This document shows, piece by piece, positions 1,395-40,256 of a stretch of DNA of 64,000 bases (positions are counted from its first letter, which is position 1; each line of letters starts with the position of its first letter). The translations under genes and the position numbers were made by a program. Source of the DNA: Tubulanus polymorphus (Eukaryota; Animalia; Nemertea); NCBI RefSeq assembly GCF_964204645.1, contig NC_134029.1:10876850-10940849 (forward strand), read 5' to 3'. The notes beneath the pieces are model-generated. The model ran no database searches, was not told the DNA's origin, and saw nothing but the letters and a program-made list of their open reading frames with translations.

Positions 1395-4300
1395 AAAGAT
1401 GATATATTAGAAAATAAATTAGAAGAATTAAAGGATGAAAAAGAAACATACAAATGTGATACATGTAATCAATCATTCAGTGATAAAAGATATTATAAAG
1501 AACATTTAAAATCTATAAGTCATATTAGAAATAAGAATAATGATATTTTAGGTGAAGATTATTTTGATAATGATAACGATAAGAAACAGAAGACAATTAA
1601 AAGAATAAAAAATAAATTAAACAATAAAAGACCATACATGGAAGATGTAAGAAGTTATATTAATTCATTAGATAATAAAAAAGATATAGAGATAACCGAA
1701 GCATTTAAAAGTGATATTGGTCCAGCAGCTATTGAGTTTAAATTTCATAAAGGAAAAACAATAGAAGAAAATAAAAAACATTTAGAAAATATGAAAGAAA
1801 TAATAAAAATAATTACAAACGTAGAATATCCTAAAATAAGTATATCTTCTAAAGTAAAGTTTATAAAATCTGAAGATAAACCAATATATAATATAAATTC
1901 TCATTCACAACATATTATTTCTAAACAACATATAGATGATAAATTAGATAAATGTTATAATGAAGTAAAAACTAAAATAGAAGAGAAATATTTTGAAGGA
2001 TCTGGTTTAATATTTGATGAGATAATATTTATAACTTTACATGTTTATAACACAAAATATAATAAGTTAACTAAATCAAAACCAATTGATGAAAATAATT
2101 TATCATATTATAAAGATGATAGTATAAATGGAACAAGTTATATTAAACTACCATTTAAAACTAATGGTGTAATAAATATACAAAATTTTGATAATAAATG
2201 TTTTCTATGGGCTATAATAAGTTGTTTACATCCAACAGAAGATATTACACATAGTTTTAGATTAACTCATTATAAACCATTTGAAAATAATTATAAGATA
2301 GATAAGTATCCTGTTAGAATTAAAAACATCCCAAAAATAGAAAGAGATAATAATATAAAGATAAATGTATTTGATTTAATTAAATTACCAAATACAAAAG
2401 GAAATAATATTAAACATTATACATTAGAACCTTTATACCTATCAAAAGATTATGATTCAAATGATGTTATAGATATACTATATTATGAGAATCATTACAT
2501 GTGGATTAAACAAATCGATTTATTTTTTAAATCAGAAAATGATTTTGATAATAAAATATATCTATGTAGAAAATGTTTACATAAATTCAGAACTGAAGGT
2601 GCATTATTAAATCATAAACAACTATGTGATAATCATGATTATTGTAAATTAGTTTTACCAAATGAAAAGGATAAAATATTAGAATTCAAAAAATATGATT
2701 ACAAAAATAAAGTACCATTTGTAATATATGGAGATTTTGAATCATTAAATAAAGAATTAACAGATAAAGATAGAAAAGATATATATTATAAAAGAAAGAA
2801 ATTAAATTCTAATGAAAGTGATTTTTCAGATGAACCACCAAAAACAAATACTATTAAAAAGATTCATCAATCAGCTGCAGCTTTCGGGTTATATATTAAA
2901 TCTAATTATCCAGAACTAATCGAAAGTGAATATTATAATTATAGAAATGAAAATGTTATCAATCATTTTTGTGACTTATTAATTGAATATGAAATAAGAT
3001 TTAGAAAATTATTGAATACAAATAAAGAAATAATTATGACAGAAGAAGATAAAGAAGAATTTGAGTTTTCAGATAAATGTTATTATTGTGAAAAGATATT
3101 TAATTATAAAGATAAAAAAGTAAGAGACCATGATCATTTGAATGGAAAGTTTAGAGGCGCTGCACATGAGAATTGTAACTTACAAGCTAAGAAAATTAAC
3201 TTTGTACCAGTTATATTTCATAATCTATCAGGATATGATGCACATTTATTTATCAAACAGCTATGTTATAAAATAGAAGAAATCAATAATGAAATAGAAA
3301 TATTAAATTCAAATAGATCAAAAGATAAAATACCAACTTATAAATTTAGAATGTTAGCTAAAACATCTGAGAATTATATATCATTCCAATTTGGTTGTCT
3401 AAGATTTATAGATTCATATAGATTTTTAAGTAGTTCATTAGACAATCTATCAAAATCATTAGTTGATGATGAATTAAAAATATTAAAACAACACTACCCA
3501 AATAATGATGATTTTAAATTAATGAGATATAAAGGAGCAATTCCATATTCATTTTATAAGAATCATAATGATTTTAACATAACTGAATTATTGAAAGAAC
3601 AATTCTATGATGAATTAAAAAATGAATATGTTAAAGATGAAGTCTATAATAGAACATTGAATATTTGGAATCATTTCGAAATTAAAAATCATGGACAATT
3701 AGTAGATTTATATTTAAAATCAGATGTATTATTATTAACCGATATATTCGAAAGGTTTAGAGATGTAAACCTAAAATATTTCAATATTGATCCTTGTCAT
3801 TGTTATTCTAGTCCAGGTTTAACATGGGATTGTGGATTAAAATTTACAGATATAAAAATGGATTTGTTAACAAATATAGATCAATTACTATTATTTGAAA
3901 AATCTATAAGAGGAGGAGTTTCAGGTGTATTAGGTGATAGAATGTAAATGATAATCCTGGATATAAGTTATTATACATAGATGCAAATAATTTGTATGGT
4001 TGGGCAATGATGGAACCACAACCATATGGAGTATTTGAAATAAGTGAAGTTTTACAGAATGAAAATAATGATAAATTTGATTGGAAGAAAAGAATCCTAG
4101 ATATTGCAGATGATTCAGATACTGGTTACTTATTTGTTGTAGATTTAGAATACCCTGAAAATATTAAATTCAAATCTAGAAATCTAGCATATTGTCCCGA
4201 ACATAAAACTGTTAAACATGAAGAATTATCAAATTATCAAAAAAGAATTAAACCCGATAATCATATTCATACTGAAAAGTTAATGGTAACTCAAGAAGAT

Positions 4301-5314
4301 GAATATAATTACGTTGTGCATTATAGAATGTTGAAGTTTTATTTGAATCAAGGAATGATTCTAAAAAAAGTACATAGATATATTTCATTCAGTCAATCTA
4401 AATGGTTAGAAAAATATATAGATTTTAATACTACACAGAGAACTAAATCTAAAACTGATTTTGAAAAAGATTTCTTCAAACTAATGAATAATGCATTCTA
4501 TGGTAAGACTTGTGAAAACATAAGAAATAGAAATGATATTGAGTTAGTTAGTAATGGTAAAAGAATTAGACATTTACAATCATATCCTAAGTTCATTGGT
4601 AACAGAATATTTGATAAAAATTTAGCTGCAGTTAAAATGAGGAGAACTTCTATGAAGTTCAATAAACCTATTTATGTTGGTGCATCGGTTTTAGAATTAT
4701 CAAAGTTATTAATGTATAAATTTTACTATAACATATTACAACCCCATTTTGGAGAAAAACACATAGAAATTCTATACTTTGATACCGACAGTTACATATT
4801 AAAGATAAAAACTGATAACATAACAGATGATTTAAAAACATTAAAACACCATTTTGATTTTAGTAACTATCCAAAAAATCATGAATTGTTTAGCAATGAT
4901 AATAAAAAAGTTCCCGGTAAATTCAAAGATGAATTAGGTGGTGAAGAAATGATAGAGTTCATTGGTATTAGATCTAAAATGTATTCATATAAAACTAAAA
5001 CTCATGAAGCTAAAAAGTTAAAAGGAATTACCAAAAGCGTTGTTGAAAAGAATATTCATTTTAAAGATTACATCAATTGTATATTTAATGAAGAAGTTAG
5101 AAAACATAAGATGAAATGTTTAAGATCTGAAGATCATGAAATGTATATTGAAGAGATAGAGAAGATAAGTCTAAACCCATTTGATGATAAAAGATATATA
5201 TTAGATGATGGTATACACACAGTCGCCTATGGTTGCAATTTAGATGAATATATAAAATTCAAAAGAGAAGAAACAAAAGAAAATGAGATTATGAAAAGGA
5301 TTCTAGCGTGTTAA
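1281..5314 (+). pseudogene. polB: Protein-primed family B DNA polymerase, split by a 1-nt deletion at ~3942
   Basis: ExoI YGDFES, ExoII FHNLSGYDAH, ExoIII YLKSDVLLL in 1281..3947; restoring one base (AGA[T]ATGTAAAT) gives ..GDRYVNDNPGYKLLYIDANNLYGWAM (motif A), then KLMNNAFYGK (B) and YFDTDS (C) in 3992..5314; N-terminal C2H2-like fingers; EndoVII-like CYYC..RDHDH..HENCN insert. Confidence 0.95.
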
Positions 5315-5342
5315 TCAATTTCAATAAAAATTTGTATAATAA

Positions 5343-5684
5343 ATGGAGAGTAAACAAGTACACAGTGAATTCTTAGATAGAATTAAAGATACTTCAAGCG
5401 TCAAATCTGTAGATTATAAATTTAAAAAACTAACTGAGTTAACAATTCACAAGAAATATCTAATTACTAACATTGAAACAATTACTAATAAATATGGAGA
5501 TAAATTAGTAATTCATTTAGAATATGAAGGATTAAAAGGAAATTCATATAAATTCAGAACATATTTACCAGATAGATTTCATAGATTATCAAGTGAAGAT
5601 CTAGAAGAATTATGTTCTGGAGATTTCTATTTCGTATATAAAGGTAAGAATGAAAAAGGGCACCATGAAATAGATTTCGAATAA
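5343..5684 (+). CDS. Small Polinton protein, possibly an OB-fold ssDNA-binding protein
   Basis: 113 aa directly after polB; beta-rich TNKYGDKLVIHL..TYLPDRF pattern; a homologue lies at 39851-40168. SSB function is inference. Confidence 0.55.
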   Translation: MESKQVHSEFLDRIKDTSSVKSVDYKFKKLTELTIHKKYLITNIETITNKYGDKLVIHLEYEGLKGNSYKFRTYLPDRFHRLSSEDLEELCSGDFYFVYKGKNEKGHHEIDFE

Positions 5685-5701
5685 GAAAATATGTAAAATA
5701 A

Positions 5702-6463
5702 ATGGTAGAATTAAAAGAATATAGAATATTTGTTGATTCTAGAAAACTTACAAATTATAAATCTCATAATTTACTAGTACAATTAGATAGAGAATTCAAG
5801 AATTGTGTAGATTTAAAATTAGTTAATATAAGTTTATGTAATTCTTTTTACAATGTATCGGATAAGTCTATTGAACATAGAGTCTTTTTAATTAATATTA
5901 GAAATAAAAATGAATGGGTCTACATATATTTAAAACCAGGGTTATATAATTTAGATACATTAGCACAAGAAATTAATAGAAAAGCCTGGCACAAATTAGG
6001 TAGTAGTTCTGGGTTTAGTATTAGATTTTTAAAAAGTGAGAGTTCTGATAGAATAAAGATAAGGTTGTCTAATAGTGAAAAACATAAAATTATGGTAAAA
6101 AAACCTATAGCTAAACTGTTAGGAATTCTTCCAGATAGATCTTTTACAAATATTGACGCTACTACACCAAACTTAATACCTTACACACATTTTTATATTT
6201 ATTGCAATTTAATCGATCCTACAAAAACATTCGAAGCAACTAAAGATATAACTTGTAATTCTGGTTTACTAAACATTTTACCATTGAAGAATGTTAAAGA
6301 ATTTGGAACGCAAATAAATTATAATTTAACAGAATGTGATTTCAAACCATGCATTCCTAGTTTTAATAATTTTAGATTAGAAATTAGAAATCATAATGGA
6401 TACTTAATTGATTTAAATAATTTCCCTGTAATTTATGAATTAGTTATAAGATGTAAAGAGTAA
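5702..6463 (+). CDS. Minor capsid protein (penton, single jelly-roll)
   Basis: 253 aa; IFVDSR N-terminus, KPGLYN, LLG, FYIYCNLI and C-terminal LEIRNHNGYLIDLNNFP resemble Polinton/virophage pentons. Confidence 0.75.
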   Translation: MVELKEYRIFVDSRKLTNYKSHNLLVQLDREFKNCVDLKLVNISLCNSFYNVSDKSIEHRVFLINIRNKNEWVYIYLKPGLYNLDTLAQEINRKAWHKLGSSSGFSIRFLKSESSDRIKIRLSNSEKHKIMVKKPIAKLLGILPDRSFTNIDATTPNLIPYTHFYIYCNLIDPTKTFEATKDITCNSGLLNILPLKNVKEFGTQINYNLTECDFKPCIPSFNNFRLEIRNHNGYLIDLNNFPVIYELVIRCKE

Positions 6464-6479
6464 TTTTTTCATTATATAA

Positions 6480-6821
6480 ATGAATATAACTGTTGGACCG
6501 AGTATATGTTTTGGGTTTGATTTTAAACATGGTAAAGAAATGAGAATTAAACTAAATGATGTAATTACTGATATAAAAAGTAAATCATTTAACAATGCGT
6601 CAATGATTGATAAAGAAAAGTATAATATAGAAAAAGTAATTGATTTAATTAAATCACCTTTAGAATATTATGAATTAAATGAAGATGGAATTATTGAAGA
6701 TATCAAAAACATATTAACCAAAATATATGATAATCATAAAACTAGTAATGAAATAAATGTTGAATTAATCATAAATAAGTTAACTAAATATTTTGATGAT
6801 AGTAATTTTTTTGATAAATAA
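6480..6821 (+). CDS. Hypothetical Polinton protein (113 aa)
   Basis: ORF in tightly packed co-directional array with T-tract/TAAATG start. Confidence 0.7.
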   Translation: MNITVGPSICFGFDFKHGKEMRIKLNDVITDIKSKSFNNASMIDKEKYNIEKVIDLIKSPLEYYELNEDGIIEDIKNILTKIYDNHKTSNEINVELIINKLTKYFDDSNFFDK

Positions 6822-7043
6822 ATGAGTGATAATAAGTGGATAATAACTGGATTATATAATGGTGCCTTACTATCAGTTGGAACGGTTGGTTATTCAATGG
6901 TATTAAAAAAAGTATTCAAAATGGGAAGTGTTAATGTTGATAGATTTGATATAAATGATATTTTAAAGTTAACATTAGCAGTTACTTTATCTAATTTAAC
7001 TATTGATTATTTGGAAAAACAAAAATATATTCCTCCCATATAA
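6822..7043 (+). CDS. Small membrane protein (73 aa, two hydrophobic segments)
   Basis: GLYNGALLSVGTVGYSMVL and ILKLTLAVTLSNLTI; the TAAATG start reuses the upstream stop codon. Confidence 0.75.
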   Translation: MSDNKWIITGLYNGALLSVGTVGYSMVLKKVFKMGSVNVDRFDINDILKLTLAVTLSNLTIDYLEKQKYIPPI

Positions 7044-7067
7044 ATGCATAATTTTTTTGTTAAATAA

Positions 7068-7490
7068 ATGGCTTCTGCAATTATAACTATTATAGGATCG
7101 GCAATTGTTAACGCTTTAGCATTTACAGGTGGTGGTTATTTATTTAAACATATTGATAAAAATAGTTCATTAGGAGAACAAAGAAGACATAACTTAGCGT
7201 TAGAGAAATACAATAAAGCTGCAGAAGAATATAGAGAAAAGAGGCAAAACTATATGGATTACATCAATAAAGAATTATATGATCAGAAGATTTCACATAG
7301 AGATTTTCAATCAGTTGATGATGCAATGAGTTTATATAACGCAGTAACAAATAAAGAAAAATTACATCTATACAAACCTAAATTATCAGATTATTATACC
7401 CCAAGTAAAGAACAACAGAAATATGAAATAATATGGATTTTAGGTGGAACAGTTATTGTTATATTTGTTGCTTATAAGTTTACTAATTAG
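7068..7490 (+). CDS. Membrane protein with N- and C-terminal hydrophobic helices and a central coiled coil (140 aa)
   Basis: MASAIITIIGSAIVNALAFTGGGYLF and IIWILGGTVIVIFVAY; close copy at 31229-31588. Confidence 0.85.
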   Translation: MASAIITIIGSAIVNALAFTGGGYLFKHIDKNSSLGEQRRHNLALEKYNKAAEEYREKRQNYMDYINKELYDQKISHRDFQSVDDAMSLYNAVTNKEKLHLYKPKLSDYYTPSKEQQKYEIIWILGGTVIVIFVAYKFTN

Positions 7491-7509
7491 TAATTTTTAT
7501 TCTAAATAA

Positions 7510-7815
7510 ATGGAAGATAAAGTTGATAGTATTGATATTATTCCTCATGATATAAATAAAACTAAATTAAAAACATATTTAGAAAAACAAATATTAGAAT
7601 TTGAAAGTGACTTAAAGATAAAAAAGAAAAAATATTTAAAAAGTAAAATTATATATTATTTGATTATAAGTGGTTCGGTTACAATTAGTTCTGTAATAAC
7701 ATTTCTAGCAATATTCAGTCCATTAACACCTTTAGCTATATCAATTGGTGTATTAGGATTAAGTTCAAGTGTTTATAATTATATAAATGGGGTTTCCAAA
7801 AGCTTTCCAATATAA
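7510..7815 (+). CDS. Two-TM membrane protein, probably C-terminally truncated by a deletion
   Basis: Hydrophobic hairpin IIYYLII..LAIFSPLTPLAISIGVLGL; the homologue at 31608-32050 carries ~165 extra nt after TCAAGTGT. Confidence 0.7.
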   Translation: MEDKVDSIDIIPHDINKTKLKTYLEKQILEFESDLKIKKKKYLKSKIIYYLIISGSVTISSVITFLAIFSPLTPLAISIGVLGLSSSVYNYINGVSKSFPI

Positions 7816-9088
7816 TAAATCAATTAAATATAATATTCCGGCAATAGATTTTAAGAAAAATATTACATATAAAAATGTAGTTTTAAATTCATTAACTAAT
7901 TTAGAAATTTATGTTACTGAATCACAGTTTTTTATTTCTAAAATGGAAAATATATTTAATACATATGAAGTTACTTTTACTCGAGATGAATATCATAAAT
8001 ATAAAGTAAAATCTAATATGAAGTATTGGCAGAATCAATTAAATTTTGCTGTTTATTGTGCAACAACAGGTTGTGGAATTAGTTGGAATGATCATTTAAA
8101 TAACTTAGATAAAAATTTGAAGTATTCTGATTTAAAATTAATTCACACAATATTTAGATTTCACACATATTTTCAAATCAGAATAATATTAAATGAATTA
8201 GAATGTCCTTTACCCGGGTCTAAATATTTTAAAGAATTGGATAATAATATTAATATATCCAAGTTTTATAAAATATGTAATGAATTTAATATAAATATTA
8301 ATTCCGATTTCAGAGCGCATGGTAAATTGCAAGGTATTGGTGAACAGTATGAAATAAAAAGAATTGATTATATGCATAGAATTGGAGCTTATCATAATTA
8401 TAAAATTGATAATAATAATGGTTGGGTTAATTTCATTTTAGAAAATGGTGAAGGTTTTACAAAATCAGGCATACAAAGAATAAATAAATCTATTAGAACT
8501 TATTTGATTTGCATACTAGGCGCTCAAGTTGAAACAAGATCCCCAATAATTGGAAATGATAACACTTCATTCGATGCGCAGAAACAGTTTAAAGTTTTAT
8601 TTGAAGATTCAATTCATAATGATAAAAATAGATCGATTCCAGAAAACATTATAAGATATCAAAATTATTTAGATAAATCTCATGTAAGACTTAATTATTG
8701 TATAGGCCCTAATCTATTAATTATTTCTAATGATTTAGTATTGAAGATGGGAAATATAATTGGTTATAATAATCTAATTAAAACTGCAACAATAAATAAT
8801 TCATTTGGATTGAATGATATAAATAAAAAGATTATTACTGCTCCAAAATTAATGGAGGGTGAAAAAAATAAAAAACACATTCAATCAACAGAAACTAAAA
8901 CTAAGAATATTAAATTGGTTAATGATTCCAAAATAAAAGATTACAATACATCAGAAAATAATAGAACTGATAAAATTCAACATGATATAATTAAACAAAA
9001 TGATGATAATAAATCCCATGAAAATACTAAATTAGCTATAACTTGTATAGGAATTGTAATCGGAGGAATATTATATTTTAAATTTTAA
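7787..9088 (+). CDS. Polinton protein with C-terminal TM anchor (433 aa)
   Basis: WQNQLNFAVYCATTGCG motif conserved in element B; C-terminal LAITCIGIVIGGILYF. Confidence 0.85.
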   Translation: MGFPKAFQYNKSIKYNIPAIDFKKNITYKNVVLNSLTNLEIYVTESQFFISKMENIFNTYEVTFTRDEYHKYKVKSNMKYWQNQLNFAVYCATTGCGISWNDHLNNLDKNLKYSDLKLIHTIFRFHTYFQIRIILNELECPLPGSKYFKELDNNINISKFYKICNEFNININSDFRAHGKLQGIGEQYEIKRIDYMHRIGAYHNYKIDNNNGWVNFILENGEGFTKSGIQRINKSIRTYLICILGAQVETRSPIIGNDNTSFDAQKQFKVLFEDSIHNDKNRSIPENIIRYQNYLDKSHVRLNYCIGPNLLIISNDLVLKMGNIIGYNNLIKTATINNSFGLNDINKKIITAPKLMEGEKNKKHIQSTETKTKNIKLVNDSKIKDYNTSENNRTDKIQHDIIKQNDDNKSHENTKLAITCIGIVIGGILYFKF

Positions 9089-9104
9089 TTTTTTTATTAT
9101 GTAA

Positions 9105-10796
9105 ATGGATGTAGAAGGTGGAGAAGATTATGAAATGGGAGAAATGGGAAATAATAATGAAGGATATATTGATGATGATTATAATGATGCAGGTGCTAAT
9201 ATTGATAATGATGATGAATCAGCATATAATACTAATTTAGGTGAAGATGATGATTATGATGATGATTATGATGGTATTAATTCCGAATTACGTGAAAAAT
9301 TAAATAAATATTTAAAAGCTCCTGAAAGTGGTAGAATTTCAACTAGAACAGAAAGAAAAGAATTTATGAAACTATTAGTAAAACAACAAGAAAAATATCC
9401 TGATAAACCTATGGAATTATATAAAATGAAATCTAGAGTAACAGATACAATTGTTAACGAATTACTACCAATAGCTGTAATAGATGAAATTGATACTGAA
9501 GATATTGTAGAACAAATTTTTAAAGATGACCCATATTTCACAAATAATTTAGAATTTAAAAATGATGCATGGTATTATAATCTTGAATTAAATAGGAATA
9601 CTGTGTCAATTCAATTATCTAAAATGGGTCAAGAAAATATTTTTGAACCTGTAATGCGAGCAACATCTACAATTGAAGGTTCAAAAGGTGGTAGAGAATT
9701 TCTCAGAATTATATGGAATGCAATCGATAGAATAAATGAAAAAGAACCAATTCCTAATATTGATATAAACAAATATTCACCATTTAAAAATCCAAATCCA
9801 AATCCTACTGATTTTGATCCAGAAATGGAAGAGAATAGAAATCGATTAGATAGATTAAGATCTTCAACACCCGAAAAATCGAGAAGAGACACTCAACAAA
9901 TTGATAATGATTCAAGTAAATTACAATTAGAAAAACAAATTGATAGATTAAGAGATTCAGAAGAAGAAATGAATAGTACTGGAATAAATCGACTGCAATA
10001 TTTACTAGAAAAAGGATTATTTGATTTAACTGATGATGAATTAGAAGCATTTCCTGAACAAACACGTAGAGAAATTAAAGGTACGCAAGAATCAGCTGAT
10101 AAAATTGCGCATGATAAAAGTATAAGAGATTTTAAAATTAGAACTTTAGAAAAAGAATTAACTGATAAAAATAAAGAAATAGAACAATTAAAATTAGATA
10201 GAGATAATAAAGTTATTGAAGAAATTGAATTTAAAAAAAGAAATGCATATTTAGAAAAAGAAATTGATGATTTAGAATATAACATAGAATTACAAAAAGA
10301 AGAAATTAAATTATTATTAAAATCATATGATTATAATATTAATAGATTAAAAGTTATTTTTAAAGATTTATTGATTAAACCAAATTCTGAAATATCATTG
10401 AAAGATAGAATAAAGTTATTATTTAAATTAGAAGGAATAACAATTCTTTCAATTCTAACAGCTGTAACTATGTTATTTACAACAATTGGTTTAGCAATAT
10501 CAAATGCTTTGAAATCTACTCCTACTCCAAATAAACCAGATAAACCTCCAGGTAATAATTCTATACAAGATCAAGTAAAGGATGGTTTAAAGAAATTAGC
10601 AAAATATTTATGGGAACTATCAAAGAAATCTGCTGCAGCATTGCCAGGAGTTATTGCTTCAATTGTTGGTTTTATATTGAAATCTGCAGGAAACATTATT
10701 AACTTTGCTGCTGAACATATTATTTTATTTTTAATTACGGTTGTAAGTGCTATTATTTTTGGTTTAGTAAATATGATATCAAAAAATATCAAGTAA
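9105..10796 (+). CDS. Acidic/coiled-coil protein with several C-terminal hydrophobic helices (563 aa)
   Basis: D/E-rich N-terminus, long heptad region, GITILSILTAVTMLFTTIGLAI, ALPGVIASIVGFIL, IILFLITVVSAIIFGLV. Confidence 0.85.
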   Translation: MDVEGGEDYEMGEMGNNNEGYIDDDYNDAGANIDNDDESAYNTNLGEDDDYDDDYDGINSELREKLNKYLKAPESGRISTRTERKEFMKLLVKQQEKYPDKPMELYKMKSRVTDTIVNELLPIAVIDEIDTEDIVEQIFKDDPYFTNNLEFKNDAWYYNLELNRNTVSIQLSKMGQENIFEPVMRATSTIEGSKGGREFLRIIWNAIDRINEKEPIPNIDINKYSPFKNPNPNPTDFDPEMEENRNRLDRLRSSTPEKSRRDTQQIDNDSSKLQLEKQIDRLRDSEEEMNSTGINRLQYLLEKGLFDLTDDELEAFPEQTRREIKGTQESADKIAHDKSIRDFKIRTLEKELTDKNKEIEQLKLDRDNKVIEEIEFKKRNAYLEKEIDDLEYNIELQKEEIKLLLKSYDYNINRLKVIFKDLLIKPNSEISLKDRIKLLFKLEGITILSILTAVTMLFTTIGLAISNALKSTPTPNKPDKPPGNNSIQDQVKDGLKKLAKYLWELSKKSAAALPGVIASIVGFILKSAGNIINFAAEHIILFLITVVSAIIFGLVNMISKNIK

Positions 10797-10859
10797 ACCA
10801 TGATATCAAAAAATATCAAGTAAACCATGATATCAAAAAATATCAAGTAAACCATGATA
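10773..10859 (+). repeat. 27-bp tandem repeat x3.2 spanning the stop of the 563-aa gene
   Basis: ATGATATCAAAAAATATCAAGTAAACC at 10773, 10800 and 10827. Confidence 0.95.
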
Positions 10860-10892
10860 AAAAATAAATAATTAATTTCTTTTGTTAAATAA

Positions 10893-12140
10893 ATGAGTGG
10901 GAGTTATATAAGTCCTTCGAAGATTTCTAGAATATCTAACGCTATTAAAGCAGAAAGATCACATCATATAATTACTCATAATCCTTCAAATATTAATCCC
11001 GATGAAACTTTATATGTTAGAATCCCTCGATTAACACAAAATACTTTTTATGTTCCAAACAGTATTTATTTATCAGCTGATATAAAAGTAATCGGTAATA
11101 ATAATAATTATGTTGTTGATAATGTTGGAAGATATTTGATTAAAAAGTTAACAATAAAGATTGGTCCAGAAACAGTTTTCTCATTAGATGATTATAATCT
11201 ATTTATGCATTATAAAGATTTATGGTTAACTAAAGAAAATAGAAATAATATGATATTTCAAGGCATCCAATCGGAAAACCAAAATAAATTAAGATCAGAA
11301 GCTAATAGCGCAATATTAACAAATGATGTAGATAAATTGATAAAAAGTATATATGGAAGCAAATATAAAATTCCATTAGACTTTGAATTGATAAATAATA
11401 ATGCACCTTTGTATAAATACGCAATTCAAGAAGATATTATATTTGAGATAACATTTGCTCCTGTAAATGAAATTGTAATATCTAGCGTTAATAAAGATAT
11501 GAGTTATAAATTATCGAATATATGTTTAGAATATGATACAGTAACTGATGAAAATATTTCAAGTATAATTCAAACTCAATACAATCAAGGATTTTCATTA
11601 TTATATGATTATATTGATAAATTTAAAACTGTAACTATTAATGCAAATGATGAAATAATTAACGAGAATATTAACTTTCCTAGAAGATCTATTTAAGGTA
11701 TATTAATATTTTTTACCATTGGAACGTATACTAATGGTGCAATAAATGTTGATAATTATTATAATCCTGAAATAACAAAAGTAGAAATAACTATCGAAGG
11801 TATAGCGAATAAAATATTTTGTCAAGGAATGAGAATGATTGATCAATGGGTAGAAATTAAAAAACATTTTATGAATGAAAAAGTAAAATCATTTGAAAAT
11901 TGTAACATTAATCAAATTGATTATTATACCGGTAATAAATATGCATTATGGTTAGATTTTAGAACAACAGAGGATAATTCATTACATGGTTCTGGAAAAA
12001 AACTACAGAACACTAAAGATGGAATACAATTATTCATGAAAAAGAATAAAGGAATCAAAAATTTTAAAATGCACATTTATATTATATCTGACGCGCAATT
12101 AAATATTGTAAATTCACAATTAGATAGTGTTATGTATTAA
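10893..12140 (+). pseudogene. Major capsid protein (double jelly-roll, 415 aa if intact) with a nonsense codon at 11694-11696
   Basis: ORFs 10893..11696 and 11829..12140 are in the same frame; element B reads ATT AAA GGT where A has ATT TAA GGT; size and beta-rich pattern fit a Polinton MCP. Confidence 0.85.
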
Positions 12141-12172
12141 AATTTTAACTTTAATAAAAAATCTTATATTAA

Positions 12173-13321
12173 ATGGAAGGTGGAATATATGAAATACAAT
12201 CTCCAAGTGAAATGATATCAGATATATATTATATATTACCTTATGATGAATACAGTAAGTATTTTGGAGATTACTTTAATCAATTCAAATATAGAATAAG
12301 TAAAATAGATAAGAATATTGAACCTAAAATAGAAGATAATATTGAACCTAAAATAGAAGATAAGAATGATATTGAATATAAAATAGAAGATAATATTGAA
12401 TCTAAAATAGAAGATAATGTTATACCTTCTACATCGAATTATGATATTGAATCAAAAAAGACAAATGAAAAATATTGTGACGTATGTAAACAGTATAAAA
12501 GTTATAAGAATTGGGCAACTCATCTTAATTCACTCAAGCATAAGAAAAATAAGAATAAGATTTTAAATGAATTGAATAATGATAGTGAAATTGATAATGA
12601 TAATGTTAAAGAAGATAAATATTGTGAAGAATGTGATAAATATATAAGTCGTAGTAATTTTTCAAAGCATAAATTAACACAGATACATTTGGATAATATA
12701 GAAAGAAATATATGTGAAAAGTGTAATGTTGTTGTATTACCTAAAGATAGAATTAAACATGATAATTCTTTTGAACATACAATAAAAGCTGCTGATTTAA
12801 ATTACCTTTATAGAGCACCAAGTGTATTTTTTGATATCGAAAATAATGATCATAGGAAATTATATAGATCAATTTTTATCGATTATGTAAGAAATAATCC
12901 AAAACAAGTATTATCAGATCTAAAAACTCGTCGGACGATTATAAAAATTTATCTAAATAATTATTGGAGTATACATTATTTCATAAAATTTAAAAATATA
13001 GATTTTTTAACAGAATTGAAAAAAGTTGCTGCTAATGATAATTATGATAATAAAAGTGATAACTTTGATGAAATAATTCAATACTACAGTTATGAAGATT
13101 TTTCACAGGATGTTATAAATAAAATAAGAAATGAAGCAAAAAATGAATATAAAAATATAAGTGAAGACAAATTAAACCAATATATTTATTTAACTTATGA
13201 ATTCTGGGTTAAGGGTTTGAACGGTAATAGTTATCATTTTAAACTATTAGGTGAAAGAAGATCGCAAGAATTAAGAGATGCATGGATCAAATTGTTTTCA
13301 GAATTAGAATCAGAAAAGTAA
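12173..13321 (+). CDS. Zinc-finger protein (three C2H2/matrin-like fingers, NIEPKIED repeats)
   Basis: CDVC..HLNSLKH, CEEC..HKLTQIH, CEKC..HDNSFEH; 24-nt repeats at ~12300-12420. Confidence 0.85.
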   Translation: MEGGIYEIQSPSEMISDIYYILPYDEYSKYFGDYFNQFKYRISKIDKNIEPKIEDNIEPKIEDKNDIEYKIEDNIESKIEDNVIPSTSNYDIESKKTNEKYCDVCKQYKSYKNWATHLNSLKHKKNKNKILNELNNDSEIDNDNVKEDKYCEECDKYISRSNFSKHKLTQIHLDNIERNICEKCNVVVLPKDRIKHDNSFEHTIKAADLNYLYRAPSVFFDIENNDHRKLYRSIFIDYVRNNPKQVLSDLKTRRTIIKIYLNNYWSIHYFIKFKNIDFLTELKKVAANDNYDNKSDNFDEIIQYYSYEDFSQDVINKIRNEAKNEYKNISEDKLNQYIYLTYEFWVKGLNGNSYHFKLLGERRSQELRDAWIKLFSELESEK

Positions 13322-13344
13322 TTTAAAATATGAATATAATACCC

Positions 13345-13890
13345 TTTGTGTCTTTATTGTCTTTAGTAGTTTAGTACTTTTAGTACATAAAGAATAAATC
13401 TTTATTTTATAAGTAGTGAATAAAATTATTTTTAAAACTACTAAACTACTAAAGACAATAAAGACATAAATATATATATAACACTGTTTCAATAATTATA
13501 TTTATTCATCTGATGGATTTTATATATTACTGTTTCAATAATTAAATCTATTTATTATATATATATCATAGATTTATCATTTATATATTTATTTTTCTAA
13601 GTACTAATTAAATAAAGATTTATTCTTTATGTACTAAAAGTACTAAAAGTACTAAAGATAATAAAGACATAACAAAACATATATAGATGTAATAAATATC
13701 ATAGATTTATTTATCTCACATATTTATTATATATATTTGATTCAGTAATGATAAATCTATGTGTGTTTGTTATGTCTTTATTATCTTTAGTAGTTTAGTA
13801 GTTCTATTTTATTTTTAAAGTATTAATAAAATAAAGATTTATTCTTTATGTACTAAAAGTACTAAACTACTAAAGATAATAAAGACATTA
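13345..13890. repeat. Nested direct and inverted repeats between convergent genes
   Basis: Five copies of (A/G)TACTAAA(C)TACTAAAGA(C/T)AATAAAGAC in both orientations. Confidence 0.85.
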
Positions 13891-13946
13891 GGGGGAGGTA
13901 TATAATACATATCTAATACATATCTAATACATAGGTATACAAATAG

Positions 13947-14558
13947 TTATTTTATAAATTTATATTCATATGGAAATTGTAATCTCATAAGTAATTTGGA
14001 ACCTTTATTATTCTTTAATTTATTCATATATTCATCATGTAATTCAGGAGGTATAATTTGATTTTCTTCCAATGATTGTTGCATAGATTTTTTATCTTTG
14101 TTATAAAATAAAACTAGAAATCTTATATTCTCTCTAAAATCTTTCACAATTGAATTATATTTCTGATTTAAAACCCATGTTGTTATCCCAAAATGTCTAC
14201 CAGAGAAAGCTAAATAACATAACTCACTTTCTCTAATTTTAGAATCATGTAAATTTGCGCAATCATCAATAATAAATAATGTATTAGATCCTTTATAAAT
14301 ATCTAATGCAATTTTTATACAATTATCTAAATTTTCTTTTACTGTTTTAGGATCTAATATAATAAACTTTTTTATCTTAACTATGTCTCTATTATATGTT
14401 TTATTCATTTCATAAGTAGGGCAGAATAATATTATATTATCAAAATGATTCTTATAAATAGTTTCTAACAAATCTAATATGAAATGTGTTTTACCACAGT
14501 TTGTTACTCCAGTAACTAACATATTATGTGGTTCAAATATAAACAAATCTTTATTCAT
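13947..14558 (-). CDS. A32/FtsK-HerA-type genome packaging ATPase
   Basis: Walker A GVTNCGKT, Walker B FIIDD, GRHFGITTWVLNQ motif. Confidence 0.92.
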   Translation of the reverse strand: MNKDLFIFEPHNMLVTGVTNCGKTHFILDLLETIYKNHFDNIILFCPTYEMNKTYNRDIVKIKKFIILDPKTVKENLDNCIKIALDIYKGSNTLFIIDDCANLHDSKIRESELCYLAFSGRHFGITTWVLNQKYNSIVKDFRENIRFLVLFYNKDKKSMQQSLEENQIIPPELHDEYMNKLKNNKGSKLLMRLQFPYEYKFIK

Positions 14559-15639
14559 TTATTCTTTTAATTTTACTAGATAAAATCCATTCATTAAATT
14601 TATCATCATATCCTTTATATTTCACCAGAGAATACTTTTTTCCTTTAAGAGTTTTTGTTTTCAATACCTTTTCTATTTTGTATTCTATTTCATCTGGATT
14701 TGGTACTAATGATAATTCTTGTTCATAAAAATAACCTAATATTTCTTCATCTTTTAAATCAAACAATTTATAAACAAATGGTTTAGTTAATATTATCTTT
14801 TTAATTTTAAATATTTCTTCAGTAAAATTAGGGGTATAACCTTTATAAAATGTTTTTCGATATTTAGAAATTCTAACATGTTGTCCTATTTTAAATTTAG
14901 GTTCACCGAAATCGTGTGTAACAAACGCACCATATAAATTATTCCAAACTATTTCTGAATTTTCTTCTTTTCTAGCTTGTATAGGTTTCATATTTATAGA
15001 ACTATGTTTACAATTATTATAACCTTTAACTAAATCATCTAATACATCGATATATTTGTATGTTTCATTAGCGGTGAAATATTTCCACATTCTAGTTTTC
15101 AATGTTTTATTAAATCTTTCTATAACAGATGCTTTTTTATCTGAATGTGTTGAAAAATATTCTACATCGTTATCAGATAATAGTTTTTTAAAATGTTTGT
15201 TATAAAATTCTTTACCTTCATCAAATTGTATTTTATCTGGGATAGCTTCTTTAAATATTAATTTGAAAGAATTTGTAACTTCTATACCAGTTTTATTTTT
15301 AATCGGGATACTCCATGCGTATCTACTGAATATGTCTATAACATTTAGTATCCAAAAATATTCTTTGTTATATTCTTCTAAGTTTTTCATATCAATTAAA
15401 TCAGCTTGCCATTGTTGGTCAATATATGAAACCATAACTTTTCTTGTTAAATATTTTTTATCCATCTTTTTATGAATTTGATATGTGGGTTGATTTTGTA
15501 ACCATGATTTTAATTCACTATGTTTTATTTTTTCTTTATCAGATTTAATTTTATTCCATAATTCTGAAACACTTGAATATGATACTTCACTTTCTGGGTT
15601 GTAATATAAATCTCTCAAATATTGTTCTTTTTTCATCAT
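14551..15639 (-). CDS. Retroviral-type (rve) integrase with C-terminal chromodomain
   Basis: DDE triad in WQADL, QFDEGKEF, VIERFNKTLK; chromodomain YKIEKVL..YSLVKYKGYDDKFNEWI; ORF intact. Confidence 0.95.
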   Translation of the reverse strand: MMKKEQYLRDLYYNPESEVSYSSVSELWNKIKSDKEKIKHSELKSWLQNQPTYQIHKKMDKKYLTRKVMVSYIDQQWQADLIDMKNLEEYNKEYFWILNVIDIFSRYAWSIPIKNKTGIEVTNSFKLIFKEAIPDKIQFDEGKEFYNKHFKKLLSDNDVEYFSTHSDKKASVIERFNKTLKTRMWKYFTANETYKYIDVLDDLVKGYNNCKHSSINMKPIQARKEENSEIVWNNLYGAFVTHDFGEPKFKIGQHVRISKYRKTFYKGYTPNFTEEIFKIKKIILTKPFVYKLFDLKDEEILGYFYEQELSLVPNPDEIEYKIEKVLKTKTLKGKKYSLVKYKGYDDKFNEWILSSKIKRINE

Positions 15640-15642
15640 ATT

Positions 15643-16068
15643 TTAATCCATTAATAATATTTTAGATTTATTTTCATTTGATTTATGATTTGACTTATTT
15701 TCGGGTATGATAGGTTTACTGTCTGTACACGGATAACTAAGTTTCCGATTGTCATTGGAATCATCTTTATCATCAGATTTGAATTTTGATTTATATATTA
15801 CACCGGATAATATAATAACTGTTACTAATCCAATTGTAATATATAATTTATAATTACTTCCAGCATTAGAAGAATTAGATGGATTATTATTTGAATCAAT
15901 ACCACCGTGTGGGTGCTGTACGGCACCATCAGATAATTTCTGTGATTCATTTATATCAGTTAATTTCTTTTTCTTAGCTTTTTTTAATTCTGAAGATCTT
16001 TTACCTAATTCTCTTGCCCATATAATTTGTTTCTCGGATCTAGGCTTCTTCTTAACGCTATCACTCAT
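15643..16068 (-). CDS. Basic protein with a single TM helix (141 aa)
   Basis: K-rich N-terminus; LYITIGLVTVIILSGVIY; TAAATG start. Confidence 0.75.
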   Translation of the reverse strand: MSDSVKKKPRSEKQIIWARELGKRSSELKKAKKKKLTDINESQKLSDGAVQHPHGGIDSNNNPSNSSNAGSNYKLYITIGLVTVIILSGVIYKSKFKSDDKDDSNDNRKLSYPCTDSKPIIPENKSNHKSNENKSKILLMD

Positions 16069-16641
16069 TTATTTTTGTTTTGATTCATTTTCTGTTTCGA
16101 TGTTTGGTTGTAGTACAGCGTCATCTGTTTCATTCTTACCTGATTTATATTCCATAGGTTTGATGTTCGAAAATGTTATGACGCCAGTAGAAATTAATGT
16201 CATAACCGATCCTAATTGAAATGAAGCATATCCAACCCATTTTTGTAATTCAGTCATAACTAAATAGTCATTTTTCAAATCATTATATAATTTATTTTCA
16301 TCATCAATTGGTATTAACTGGTTACATAATTTTGAATAACATTTGACAATACCATCTGAAATAGAATCATTTATTCTAGCTAATCGAGCTTCTTCATAAA
16401 TCTTAAAATATTTTATTACTTTATCGGGTTTCATAGCATCTAATTCTTGAAAAGTAATGATTCTATTTAAAAACTCATTAGTTTTTCCACCGGCAATCAA
16501 TAGTTCTATATGGTGCTTACAATATAAATAGTATTCATAATCTATAGAATTAGAAACAACTGTATCTTTATTATCACTAATACCTAAATCATCTAATGTC
16601 TTTTCAATATCAATATTATTCTTACTCGATTTCTTTGACAT
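16069..16641 (-). CDS. Hypothetical Polinton protein (190 aa) with a C-terminal hydrophobic segment
   Basis: TAAATG start; homologous 5' part (IEKTLDDLGI..YEYYLY) at 39470 in element B. Confidence 0.8.
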   Translation of the reverse strand: MSKKSSKNNIDIEKTLDDLGISDNKDTVVSNSIDYEYYLYCKHHIELLIAGGKTNEFLNRIITFQELDAMKPDKVIKYFKIYEEARLARINDSISDGIVKCYSKLCNQLIPIDDENKLYNDLKNDYLVMTELQKWVGYASFQLGSVMTLISTGVITFSNIKPMEYKSGKNETDDAVLQPNIETENESKQK

Positions 16642-17050
16642 TTATTTCAGAGAAATTTAATAAGAATAGTATTATAAGTATTCTTCAAATGATACTAGTA
16701 TCTCTTTAGGTTAATACTAAATTGACTAGGTTAGTTAAAGTTAAAGAATTTCTATTCAAATCTATTCAAAATCTATTCAATCTAATGTCAATTAGAATTA
16801 CCAAAAGAAAATATTGAAAATATGATAGAATTGACTAGCTAGTTGAAGTTATTGTTTTTTTATTATATTTTATTTAAATTAGGATTTAATATCTCACTAC
16901 TATTGTCTATCTATAGGAGCGGTAACTATAACTGTCCAGATAAGTCATTTCGGATCCTCGATATCAAATCCTCAACTGAAAATAAATTCAAAGAAACGAC
17001 TGGTGGAAATCTTATTTCATAAACAGATATATTTATTATGTAAATTTTAG

Positions 17051-17340
17051 CGATCGATAATAGAACAATGGAGAACAATAGAAATGCGGTCCAATCGGAC
17101 CGGTTATTGCGCAATACACAGTTATATTTTTATTCTAACAACGATTAATAATAGAACAATGGAGAACAATAGAAATGCGGTCCAATAGGACCGGTTATTG
17201 CGCAATACCTAGTTAACAGTAAACTATCAATACAGAACAACCGCCGCCATTAACAACGATCAATAATAGAACAATAGAGAACAATAGAAAAGCGGTTCAA
17301 TCGGACCGGTTATTGCGCAATACTTAGTTAACAGTAAACA
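17051..17340 (+). repeat. Three ~65-90-bp direct repeats carrying small palindromes
   Basis: ATAATAGAACAATGGAGAACAATAGAAATGCGGTCCAATCGGACCGGTTATTGCGCAATAC x3. Confidence 0.9.
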
Positions 17341-17410
17341 ATACAATATTAAAACAGATATATACAACATTTTTTGATATCTATATTACAAAGACCTTCA
17401 GTGTTATAAT

Positions 17411-17877
17411 TTATAATTTTGTCCAGAATTCTTTAATTACTGGATTGTTTCCAATCATTTCTTCAATTTCTGGTAAATGTCTTACTACTTCACTAAATGC
17501 TAATCCTAATATTTTGAATTTTTCATATTTTATTAATCTACCTACTCTTCTCAGTTTTCTTTCAAAACCGGCACTGATATCTCCACTCATTTTCTTAGTT
17601 TTCGATTCTTTGAGTCCCAACAGCAATTTAAGTCGCGTTGCTGGTAATTTTGGTAATTGTAGTTCGCGCGGTAATTGTTTATTATGTATTACATTACTCA
17701 GAGTTTTCACCATTTCTTGATGATAGTCCAAATGTTCTTATAATTTTCTGAAGTTTGTTCGTCAATTACGAGAGTTTCATCCTCCATTTCTATTGATTCC
17801 TGAGTTTCACTATCTATCGTTTCTGGTTCCTCATCCGTTGGTTGACTTGGAATTTCTGGTTGATCTCTGAATTCCAT
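17411..17877 (-). pseudogene. Probable ~155-aa gene with acidic N-terminus, frameshifted near 17735
   Basis: TAAAATG start at 17877 (MEFRDQPEIPSQPTDEEPE..) joins ORF 17411..17731 only via a frameshift. Confidence 0.5.
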
Positions 17878-18289
17878 TTTAATCTAAAAGATATCGTGAA
17901 AATGAATTACTGTACTTAAATATGTTTAAAGGTTTCCCTACTTCATAATAACTACAAAAAACGGTACTTACATTTAGATTTAGAACTGTAAACTGTGTTT
18001 TGAGAGAGAATATCCAATACGTACTATGTATGTGAATGTTGATTTCTAACTGCCGACGTGGCGCACGTTCAACCAAACTAATTACTTCTGCATGTTTGCC
18101 TGGATTGTAACAGATGTTCCTTTGTGATTAATCCTTTTCAACTGAAATAGCACCTTCGATCAATATTCAAATGAGGTGCGCCCCATTCAACTGAATATGA
18201 AATACGGCACAGATGTTTTTGTAAACAACCTAATGCAATTAAATATAGGTGGTTTGACATAGATCGAGAGTAACCGGTTTTCTAAGCAC

Positions 18290-18958
18290 TTAAGCTTCAA
18301 CGTATTTTTCATTATGTGTTGAATTCCATAATTCAACAAATGTCTTTGCTTTATCCAGTTGATCTAAATATAACTGTATATCTAGTTTATTAGATTTAAT
18401 AACATTTTCTTTCTTTTCAAGAGGCCTTAAATTTCTCCAACCCCAAATAAGTTTTTTATTGTATTCATCATTCATGTCAAATTTAGAAATCGGCAACACA
18501 TGATCAATATGAAAGTATTCACCATAATTATCTATATTCATTTTATCATCGAATTGATATATTATCCATGATTTGAGAAATTCATCTGAACAACCCAATA
18601 AATTAGATAATGTTTCTGAATGTGTTTCTTTATTGAATAATTTTGATACTTTAGATCTTAAGCATTGTTTCATTTTAAAATTAAAATCTGTTTGATATCT
18701 TTCTTTATGATAATTTCTATTATACACTTTAATATGTTCTAAATGATTTTCTTTCCATTGCTTATTTTTATCTTTGCGTGTTTCGGTATTATTTCTATAA
18801 TTTTGTTTGTCACTTAGTTTACTACAAGTTTTACAATAACTTTGCTTACCATCTTTCTGAGTTTTATAATTATAATATTCCGAGAGTTGTTTATTTATTT
18901 TACATTTAGAACATTTCTTATTGTTTATATTTATACCTTGTGATTGTTCTGGTTCCAT
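18290..18958 (-). CDS. HNH/endonuclease VII-like nuclease with N-terminal Zn ribbon
   Basis: CSKC..CKTC; LLGCS..L; YFHIDHVLP..NLRPLEKKENVIKSNK, a pattern typical of HNH nucleases in large DNA viruses. Confidence 0.8.
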   Translation of the reverse strand: MEPEQSQGININNKKCSKCKINKQLSEYYNYKTQKDGKQSYCKTCSKLSDKQNYRNNTETRKDKNKQWKENHLEHIKVYNRNYHKERYQTDFNFKMKQCLRSKVSKLFNKETHSETLSNLLGCSDEFLKSWIIYQFDDKMNIDNYGEYFHIDHVLPISKFDMNDEYNKKLIWGWRNLRPLEKKENVIKSNKLDIQLYLDQLDKAKTFVELWNSTHNEKYVEA

Positions 18959-19046
18959 TTATTATACGTATTTTTACTAAATTGGTTAATAATTTTAGAA
19001 TCCTCTTCCATTTCTTCGACCAACGTCATCTTCATTTTCGTCTTTT

Positions 19047-19298
19047 TCATTCCTCGCTGCTTTTGATAAGTTGTTTCGATTCCTTGATATCAAATTCCTC
19101 AACGTATTGTTCATTATTTGGATCATTATTCCATAATTCAATAAATTTCTTTCCCTTTGTTAACTGTTCTGAATATAACTGTAAATATTCTAGTTTCAAT
19201 TTATTCTCTAAATGTGTTCTAGTTTTATTGTGTCTTGCTTTTTGGGATTTATCTATATCGATATTACATGTTGGGCAGTAGTACTTATTTGCTTCCAT
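19047..19298 (-). CDS. 83-aa chimeric ORF: PolB N-terminal zinc finger (from the TIR) plus a tail resembling the HNH C-terminus
   Basis: First 38 aa identical to PolB; QLYSEQLTKGKKFIELWNNDPNNEQYVEE aligns with QLYLDQLDKAKTFVELWNSTHNEKYVEA. Confidence 0.65.
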   Translation of the reverse strand: MEANKYYCPTCNIDIDKSQKARHNKTRTHLENKLKLEYLQLYSEQLTKGKKFIELWNNDPNNEQYVEEFDIKESKQLIKSSEE

Positions 19299-19794
19299 TT
19301 TAATACTATATTTTTTATTAAAATTGATTTTAGAAGTTCAATGATTTAAATGTTATTCATATATATATGAATATTTTAAAAGTAATAGGGGTTTAGTTGT
19401 TTCATACCAAAGGTTTAATGATCGAGTTCATTAATAACATATATTAAAAGTAATTAAAAAACTATAATATATTTTCATAACCGCGTGCATTTCAGTTGAA
19501 TAATAGAATAATAGAATAATTATTATCATTTGAATATATTTGATTATTTGAATTTGTGTATTGTAATTAAATCAATTGGTCGCGGAGCGGAGCGGTAGCG
19601 AAGTGGAGCGACCAATTGATTTAATACAATATGCTTTTTATATTATTGATATCTTAGAATAAATATTTAGTTTTGATATAAAATGCACGCGGTTATGAAA
19701 ATATATTATAGTTTTTTAATTACTTTTAATATTTTGTTTTTTAATGGGCTCGACCTTTCGACCTTTGGTATGAAACAACTAAACCCCTATTACT
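19185..19794 (-). repeat. Right TIR (610 bp); 19381-19794 is palindromic
   Basis: Reverse complement of 796-1394. Confidence 0.95.
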
Positions 19795-21724
19795 ATCGTT
19801 GTCCAATTCTTCATTATCATCGACGATTCCACATAACAAGACAGTTTCGTTTAAAACGCTTTCGTCCTCTGATTGTGGTATGCCGATTATCTGTGAACCT
19901 GTAAGAAAAAAGAACATGCATTGCTTGTGGTTAAAGGTGATGATTTTAGATATTGTGAACGGTCAAAACATATGGTATGAGCTCTGGTAAGAGGTAAGGA
20001 TTGTATCACTGTTATATCTTATCAATAAGATAATCAAAGAAACAATCCATAGGTAACAACGGTTCTTAAGTCTGGCTGAAACATTGAGCTCCCATTGCAT
20101 TTAGGGTATGTAGTTTATAGGGCCAATAGCAATATTTTTTGGCAATGGTTTTGAATTGTGATGCCATTCCTCAGTTATGTGGTCACCTTTAGGCAGGCAT
20201 ATCACCGAAGAGGTTATCGAGCGTAGTTCTGCCACTAGGTGGTGAGCCGGGTCTAAACTTAGAACTGCTCAACTAGACCCCTATACTTACATTGTACCCA
20301 AGGTTACTAAGATCGACCCACTAGTAATGAAGTGAAGTAGCTGAAAGACATACACGGACTACAAGAATGAGGCTCTTATCGAAGCGCGAGAATCAATAAT
20401 GAGTACAGGCTAGCTGGGCAATAATCTTACCTTGAGTTAACAGATGAGTTTCCGGATGCAGATGAATTAGGTCGAGTAGTTCACTCTCGTTGATTACTTC
20501 ATTTGTGGTCAAGATTGAATACAAAACTGCTTTCTTTATTTGGAATGTCTTTATTTCTTTCATTCAACAGTGCGAGAACTTTGTACTCATCATCTGTTTC
20601 CGATTCCAATCCACATAATTTCATGGCAATGGTTGAAATGGCCAAAGGAAGAATCTAAAAGACAAAATAGTACATATATTTCAACGGACATTTTACCCTC
20701 GACAAAAGTGGTCCTATTTTCCCCAAGTCCTGGGAAATCCTTTGAGGAATTGAGAAAAGAAATAGATTATTCTTTCTCTAAATACGTTATAGTGTTCTTA
20801 GTTTTTTGTATATCAATGTGACAATCTGTTTTGATAATAAAATGTGTGGCTAACGATGAAGTGTACGCCTAGAGCTACCTTCCCTACAAAGTATAGTGTT
20901 ATCGCCAGGCAGTCCCACTACCTTATTTTCCCTAATGGTGTATAGTCCACACACGTTATCCAATGAAAATGTGTATAGGCAGGGTTCTCTGTGTGAGTGA
21001 TGTTTCAAAGAATGAAAGAAGTTTACATGGCAGGCACTATACACCGGGGTAGTTTTAATATATCACATGACAAGATTATTATCATATTTGAAGTAAATCT
21101 ATAAAATGTAAGTAGGATTAAATGTGATACTTACCGTTAAGGTATTCTTCTGTGTGGTCGTTTGTTTTCAAAAATCATGGTCATATTTACTTCCAGGCTG
21201 GTGCGGTACAGACGGATTTTGCCGATTTTTTCGGATTAATTACACGATTTAACAATCTCGAGGCACTCAAATCTTTCTCAAACCACCCAGTCTAACGCAG
21301 AAATTCGTTATCTTTCAGAATAATCTTACTTGAAGCGGATTGGATTACCAATAACGAAGTTACAAACTGTTGAAGTGACATACCTATCGACCGATCTGGC
21401 GGAGAGTTTTTTTATATATAGTACCTAGGATACTGGGGTCAAAAATTTTTTTTGTCAGGTCCCTGTGGCTAGTGCAAAGTGCAATTTGTCGTCTACCATT
21501 TTTAGCCATTATTTTGCCTTTTACCATAGTGTATGGTTTAATAGATTTCAAAATAGAGCCAATCGGAATCCTCTGGAATGAAATAACAATAGTTAAGTCT
21601 TTAACAGTATTAGAGCACATATATAACAAGAGCTAATTAGTAAATTTGACGATAAATCATAATCATAAACGAGAATGAGAGAGTAGTAAGAACTGTGGAA
21701 AATCAACAGTGGGTAATATAGGAG

Positions 21725-28800: not shown

Positions 28801-28814
28801 CAGAGGGAGGATGC

Positions 28815-37407: not shown

Positions 37408-37437
37408 AAGTATAAAGTTAAAATTAACGATATATAA

Positions 37438-40168: not shown

Positions 40169-40256
40169 TTATTACGGGGAAAAATTACTTGTGGTGATGA
40201 GTGGTGTGTCGTACTCTCGTACTCTGGTATGAAACCCCACTTTTACAATTACTGAA

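Follow-up and report, generated by a model that had tools for sequence, protein, structure and literature searches.

We analysed a window of 64,000 nucleotides from the nemertean Tubulanus polymorphus (NC_134029.1, positions 10,876,850 to 10,940,849) and found that it contains element A (796-19794), a decaying Polinton of ~19 kb most of whose genes start at a motif, TAAATG, that resembles the post-replicative promoters of poxviruses. The motif lies at fixed spacing from upstream sequence cores, is conserved in relatives and rare in most other Polintons, and is accompanied by no recognisable polymerase gene. This promoter-like architecture is real, conserved, and lineage-specific; that it mimics the promoters of a helper, in the manner of virophages, is what we infer from it. 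We predict that element A is a virophage-like hyperparasite whose genes are probably transcribed in the cytoplasm by the RNA polymerase of a pox-type helper virus.

Among the 17 distinct gene starts of element A, 14 had TAAATG (forward strand, 5343, 5702, 6480, 6822, 7068, 7510, 7787, 9105, 10893, and 12173; reverse strand, 14558, 16068, 16641, and 18958), two had TAAAATG, and one had TAAAATATG. A preliminary description of the window had counted 14 of 18; TAA precedes all 14 of these ATGs, but the total of 18 included a copy of the polB start in a terminal inverted repeat (TIR), leaving 17 distinct starts. The variant starts were present as described, with TAAA preceding the ATGs of polB (1281), its TIR copy (19298), and the 17877 gene, all three TAAAATG, and TAAAAT preceding that of the integrase (15639). 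At non-gene sites in element A where an ATG is the first after a stop, TAAATG was found in 42 of 514 cases (8%), a binomial p of 3e-13 for the gene starts. The only true stop-start overlaps were those at 6822 and 16068, and with these junctions removed the count was 12/15 (p 3e-11). Base -3 was T in 14/17 starts and Kozak contexts favour a purine at that position, so a Kozak explanation does not account for the motif. The preliminary description had named a TAAATG frequency attributable to Kozak context and stop-start overlaps as a finding that would count against its proposal, and the enrichment exceeded that expectation.

The motif was then compared between relatives and controls. Contigs L001-L004, L006, and L007 were scored as relatives (L005, a near copy of L004, was left out, as were short antisense shadow open reading frames (ORFs) and, in L007, one ORF that was cut). 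All 21 of their starts had TAAA, comprising 17 TAAATG, three TAAAATG, and one TAAAATATG, down to protein identities of 31-33%. The controls were 31 other contigs of Polintons or Polinton-like viruses (PLVs), fetched with a polB profile and examined with one blind ORF caller (at least 100 aa). With this caller TAAATG preceded 13/18 ORFs in element A versus 13/282 in 30 control contigs, and a purine occupied -3 in at least 40% of the ORFs in 29/30 controls, most far above that value. The remaining contig, L039 (1-9034), is a distant Polinton with 38% GC in which 7/7 ORFs start with TAAATG, some with a T-run. Its polB is 38% identical and a protease-like domain is fused to its integrase; in a quick polB tree, which omitted 3/31 loci because of stops or short matches, it fell outside the well-supported group containing element A. 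A by-product of the 76% AT composition could be imagined, given how AT-rich the element is and the 42 TAAATG at non-start sites. The chance of this is negligible, since the internal background and the control counts refute it: the AT-richest controls (eight contigs, GC up to 32%) had 6/56, three AT-rich giant-virus contigs had 5/28, and L039 had its full set at a higher GC. On the basis of these counts, the TAAATG signal is lineage-specific and not compositional, yet it is not unique to the lineage of element A. Start motifs appear to be lineage-specific across Polintons and PLVs generally. T-run with TA(3-6)TG starts were observed in L022, L024, L028, L041, and L043, and TATATA near the start was favoured in L017, L019, L023, and L030. 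A pair of divergent genes in L004 (1811-1831) is separated by a 19-nt spacer reading TAAATG both ways, like a bidirectional promoter.

With starts aligned on the T of TAAA, the sequence information was confined to the last ~25 nt before the starts and two upstream classes were recognised. Both were defined after inspection of element A, and the relatives are therefore the fairer test. The T class (TAATTTTTTT, 6-8 nt spacer; at least five T at -13 to -8) was present at 6480, 6822, 7068, 7510, 9105, and the major capsid protein (MCP) gene, all six with T at -10; these are the T-runs that the preliminary description had placed 6-8 nt before TAAAT, and each is real. Its frequency was 6/17 in element A, 10/21 in relatives, and 1/61 at non-start TAAATG sites. 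The A class (TTTA[A/G]TAAAAA, followed after 8-9 nt by TAAA(A)TGGA; A at -10) was present at polB, 5343, 12173, and 18958, with frequencies of 4/17, 2/21, and 1/61, respectively. The T class comprises the capsid gene, three genes whose products have hydrophobic segments, and two small uncharacterised genes; the A class comprises polB and the genes for a candidate single-stranded-DNA-binding protein (SSB), a zinc-finger protein, and a nuclease. The MCP start was T class in element A, L001, and L004. The zinc-finger gene was A class in element A and in its orthologs L001:4001 and L004:4918 (24-31% protein identity), its A-run being fixed relative to the downstream ATG at gaps to the upstream stop of 32, 84, and 105 nt. 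The integrase start falls in neither class.

These classes were compared with vaccinia promoters (this and later comparisons draw on parts of the cited sources). In late promoters TAAAT(G) overlaps the start codon and position -10 is a T in the company of other Ts, and intermediate promoters carry TAAA with an A-rich upstream region and no T at -10 (PMC11980589). The cores lie ~6 nt (late) and ~11 nt (intermediate) upstream, the intermediate initiator of G8R is TAAAAT (PMC12722222), and a like post-replicative architecture is described in PMC5294985. Element A shares TAAAT(G) at the start, the T-run with T at -10, the ~6-nt spacer, and the TAAAAT variant. It differs in its A-class spacer of 8-9 nt and in having no recognised polymerase. 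The T class fits the late promoters closely and the A class the intermediate promoters roughly, and the presence of a second, intermediate-like class strengthens the comparison with poxvirus promoters.

A role of TAAATG in translation, through coupling of stop and start or through an in-frame stop upstream, or a role of the T-run as a splice acceptor or terminator, might be expected of genes packed tightly head to tail with two exact stop-start junctions and with T-runs directly after the upstream stop at 6480 and 9105. We consider this very improbable. Twelve of the 14 TAAs terminate no upstream gene, the TAAAATG variant shifts TAA out of frame, and the genes that come first in their blocks (polB and 16641) retain the motif. 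The spacing of the T-run tracks the downstream ATG, no AG lies between T-run and ATG (20/20), and the back-to-back starts L004:1811 and 1831 each have the motif. Readings of the motif as Kozak context, stop-start overlap, splice acceptor, or TATA box were ruled out by, respectively, base -3, the 12/15 count, the lack of AG, and a TATA box at 1/17 starts. AATAAA in the A class as the poly(A) signal of an upstream gene was likewise rejected because the A-run keeps its place relative to the downstream ATG and no gene lies upstream of polB.

Several results weigh against a pox-type helper. The strict class fit extends to just 10/17 starts in element A and 12/21 in relatives; an A-rich core precedes the candidate minor capsid gene and the ATPase start is unclassed. 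The nuclease ortholog is T class in L004 and A class in element A, and in L007, the most distant relative, the form used is TAAAATG and the MCP start fits neither class. The A-class spacer (8-9 nt) is shorter than the ~11 nt of vaccinia. ASFV, the other pox relative compared, has a different initiator (PMC7163114), and TAAA initiators also serve the own polymerase of yeast linear elements (PMC6211774). A motif scan of IMG/VR viral contigs gave nine loci, none with TAAATG wiring, and no helper was found; of the dependence on a pox-like virus put forward in the preliminary description, the conserved, lineage-specific, and vaccinia-like motif stood, and the dependence itself is suggested by the shape of the sequence. 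In addition, T-run with TA(4-6)TG starts and A at -3 occur in several other Polintons (L022, 8/14), and 6/13 starts in L028 have a T-run with TA3-6.

The T-run layout of other Polintons may be an old Polinton feature that is read by a host enzyme, and the motifs could be the element's own compact nuclear promoters for host RNA polymerase II, with the likeness to poxviruses due to convergence or shared ancestry. Element A inserts into nuclear DNA and is present in many copies, and TSV, of the same broad class, replicates in the nucleus (10.64898/2026.06.19.733378). We nevertheless regard transcription by RNA polymerase II as unlikely, in view of the T at -3 in element A versus the purine-rich -3 in 29/30 controls, the five gene junctions of only 16-28 nt, and the TATA box frequency, which is not enriched over a 9% background. 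The 69 AATAAA within 15 kb of sense coding sequence also argue against it, although the codon-shuffle test of this count separated no Polinton from another: AATAAA was undepleted in element A (69 versus 68.4 expected) and was likewise depleted in 0/31 controls, and a shortfall of TTTTTNT was common to many controls, so that this test does not discriminate. CpG was undepleted in element A and depleted in a host-side ORF (z -5), with mixed values in controls, a contrast that is only suggestive.

The source of a pox-like polymerase could also be a partner other than a poxvirus; examples would be a sister Polinton, a linear element of the cytoplasm, and a large DNA virus that is unrelated. The yeast elements pGKL1/2 provide a precedent: they are linear, protein-primed, and AT-rich, and their TAAAN initiator gives rise through slippage to 5' poly(A) leaders made by their own pox-related polymerase (PMC6211774). 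Our literature search also gave no pox-like virus of marine invertebrates. Such a partner seems to us quite unlikely, because no polymerase family was recognised in 21 ORFs of element A and 14 further ORFs from elements A, B, and relatives, and the presence of two core classes agrees better with a poxvirus cascade than with the yeast elements, which have one. The yeast elements differ further in having a capping enzyme and an early-like upstream core and in lacking a capsid and integration (PMC6211774); element A has a capsid and no recognised polymerase family. Since TAAAN in these elements serves a polymerase that they encode themselves, the motif in element A points to a pox-type enzyme, not necessarily to a poxvirus.

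The helper-driven transcription that we favour would proceed as follows. When the helper infects, a copy of the element, either excised or incoming, would become exposed to the viral factory. Naked DNA is readable by the post-replicative, not the early, vaccinia machinery, and the exact early motif AAAANTGAAA was absent from element A. The A-run class, akin to the intermediate promoter, would turn on the polB, SSB-like, zinc-finger, and nuclease genes first, and the T-run class, akin to the late promoter, would then drive the capsid and membrane proteins. Initiation within AAA with polymerase slippage would yield a 5' poly(A) leader; we propose that the T at -3 would thereby be absent from the mRNA and a Kozak context unneeded. 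Between helper infections the integrase would keep copies in the host genome. A broader idea, tentative and in our estimate rather doubtful, is that this animal Polinton lineage and at least one distant lineage are endogenous virophages of undiscovered pox-like viruses, that they copied both tiers of the cascade, and that they form an inherited antiviral reserve. If this is true, the helper lineage of any animal Polinton would be legible in its start-site motifs. The two-class promoter set predicts that a pox-like virus exists in a host in which our searches found none, and it would extend virophage biology, possibly including virophage-based defence, from protists to animal genomes.

The sharing of promoters with a helper is established for mavirus and the EMALEs with CroV (PMC8547959) and for Gezel-14T with PgV (10.1101/2022.07.28.501842), and are discussed for Tetraselmis PLVs (10.1101/2025.10.09.676808). 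The mavirus/EMALE and Gezel-14T systems resemble the one proposed here as small integrating DNA viruses with helper-copied promoters and many endogenous copies, but have protist hosts, Imitervirales helpers, and TCTA or AAAATTGA motifs of one class; element A has two classes of a pox-type motif, and our searches found no helper for it. The PLVs AHEV_PLV1/2 and CBEV_PLV1 occur in entomopoxvirus occlusion bodies, are Polinton-like, and have been proposed to be hyperparasites of poxviruses in animals (PMC11296320). As described there they encode a protease, L2-mu, and a phospholipase without an rve integrase, which sets element A apart, as it has the integrase and no match to those three; neither 'promoter' nor 'TAAAT' occurs in the main text of that paper. 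With Mavericks/Polintons (adintoviruses; PMC8502044) element A shares TIRs, a 6-bp duplication, polB, the rve integrase, the A32 ATPase, a capsid, and a size of ~19 kb, and it differs by several membrane-type proteins, by TAAATG starts (absent as a feature in 30/31 contigs), and by having no recognised protease. Octocoral, hydrozoan, and bivalve elements sit outside the main Maverick groups (10.64898/2026.06.19.733378). The word 'promoter' appears nowhere in the main text of PMC8502044, 10.64898/2026.06.19.733378, or 10.1101/2024.03.23.586382, and pox-type promoters in a Polinton were not found described in our literature search, which covered sources outside subscription.

Element A has the features that define a Polinton, namely TIRs of ~600 bp (arms 98-99% complementary) flanked on both sides by the 6-bp target-site duplication ATCGTT, a protein-primed polB, an rve integrase, an A32 ATPase, and a double-jelly-roll MCP. 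The polB and capsid genes are each split, and the copy is therefore decaying. From one DNA run 65,371 reads mapped on the element, mostly at 90-99% identity, with a depth of hundreds in most bins (uncalibrated to single-copy DNA); the family is multicopy. The polB gene is split into 1281-3947 and 4007-5314 in differing frames and was identified via close relatives: the second piece is 85% identical to the 1363-aa P0337, and P0345 matches DNA_pol_B_2 (E 5e-17). Named matches were from a spider and a ribbon worm (43-46% identity). In the close relatives P0345 and P0415 a LAGLIDADG intein occupies the same position; such insertions are typical of large DNA viruses. The MCP fold was read from a natural relative (P0122, 77% identical) whose structural matches were the capsids of iridovirus and PBCV-1 (E 1e-15), and for the 5343 product a Phi29 SSB match of fairly high score is a lead. 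The DNA upstream of 7787 differs from that in other copies, probably by a deletion in this copy, and the two ORFs on the 17877 side are probably one broken gene. The features are listed in Table 1.

Table 1. Features of element A and the position of element B in the window.
Feature	Position	Strand	Remarks
Left target-site duplication ATCGTT	790..795	+	Same hexamer at 19795-19800
Left TIR, ~600 bp	796..1394	+	AGT terminus; holds polB promoter and 5' end
polB start, intermediate-like	1257..1283	+	A-run -14 to -9, TAAAATG; no same-strand gene upstream
Protein-primed family B DNA polymerase	1281..5314	+	Zinc fingers and endonuclease VII domain
Intermediate-like start (A-run, TAAATGG), 113-aa gene 5343-5684	5320..5345	+	Candidate SSB
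TAAATG start, 253-aa gene 5702-6463	5680..6463	+	A-rich unclassed core; candidate minor capsid (penton)
Late-like start, 113-aa gene 6480-6821	6461..6482	+	TAA-T6, 7-nt spacer, TAAATG
Late-like start, 73-aa gene 6822-7043	6803..6824	+	T-run within upstream coding sequence; TAA is the upstream stop
Late-like start, 140-aa gene 7068-7490	7049..7070	+	Two hydrophobic segments
Late-like start, gene 7510-7815	7491..7512	+	Hydrophobic segment
TAAATG start and 433-aa conserved gene (7787)	7784..9088	+	C-terminal hydrophobic tail
Late-like start and 563-aa coiled-coil gene 9105-10796	9086..10796	+	C-terminal hydrophobic segments
Late-like start and double-jelly-roll MCP gene	10874..12140	+	Split 10893-11696 / 11829-12140
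Zinc-finger gene 12173-13321 (382 aa) with intermediate-like start	12150..13321	+	
A32 packaging ATPase	13947..14561	-	TAAATG start inside integrase 3' end; upstream class unassigned; Pox_A32 E 1e-11
rve integrase and chromodomain	14551..15645	-	Start TAAAATATG, same form in L001
141-aa gene, hydrophobic segment	15643..16071	-	Stop-start junction at the TAAATG
190-aa gene, weak T-rich start	16069..16660	-	Late-like in L001, L004, L006, and element B orthologs
TAAAATG start at 17877, then two short ORFs	17411..17881	-	56 and 100 aa
Endonuclease VII/HNH-like gene (222 aa) with intermediate-like start	18290..18981	-	phrog_1035 E 2e-17
Right TIR	19185..19794	-	polB-start copy at 19298
Right target-site duplication ATCGTT	19795..19800	+	
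Element B, rearranged and decayed relative of A with insertions	~30940..40200	.	

Family searches recognised no RNA polymerase or transcription factor among the 21 ORFs of element A and the 14 further ORFs already mentioned, and the largest unexplained ORFs of element A (563, 433, and 382 aa) matched no polymerase family. Several ORFs remain without explanation after these searches, including 7787, whose protein has 1221 relatives and a confident structure model yet no fold match. No cysteine protease was matched by Pfam in element A, and Pfam was also blind to the protease-like N-terminus of L039:2740. Single or close queries with the ATPase, MCP, 7787, and polB found no relatives in the viral contig collection and none in the phage collection, and no Rfam families or tRNAs were found within the window. 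Between the converging gene blocks, 13322-13946 is a non-coding spacer with long nested inverted repeats (I9 and I10), possibly terminator or hairpin signals. Three direct repeats of ~92 nt (D10, 17045-17342) with higher GC lie between the 16641 and 17877 ORFs.

Element B retains TAAATG at 31608, 34510, 37438, 38545, 39470, and 40168, as the preliminary description had noted, and its polB start (31044, reverse strand) is TAAAATG with an A-run. It is 85-94% identical to element A across shared blocks, and its starts are therefore weak independent support. Element B also has a pair of Polinton termini at 31104-31228 that stand back to back as a 62-nt inverted repeat (I19), which suggests a rearranged or end-joined copy. 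Further downstream, an uninterrupted frame of 1193 codons (53458-57039, reverse strand) is strongly CpG-depleted and transposase-like by eye; its 956-aa part had no Pfam match. Between elements A and B lie a decayed Helitron (Rep, PIF1, and endonuclease) and a reverse-transcriptase fragment (21700-26300 and 28800-30700).

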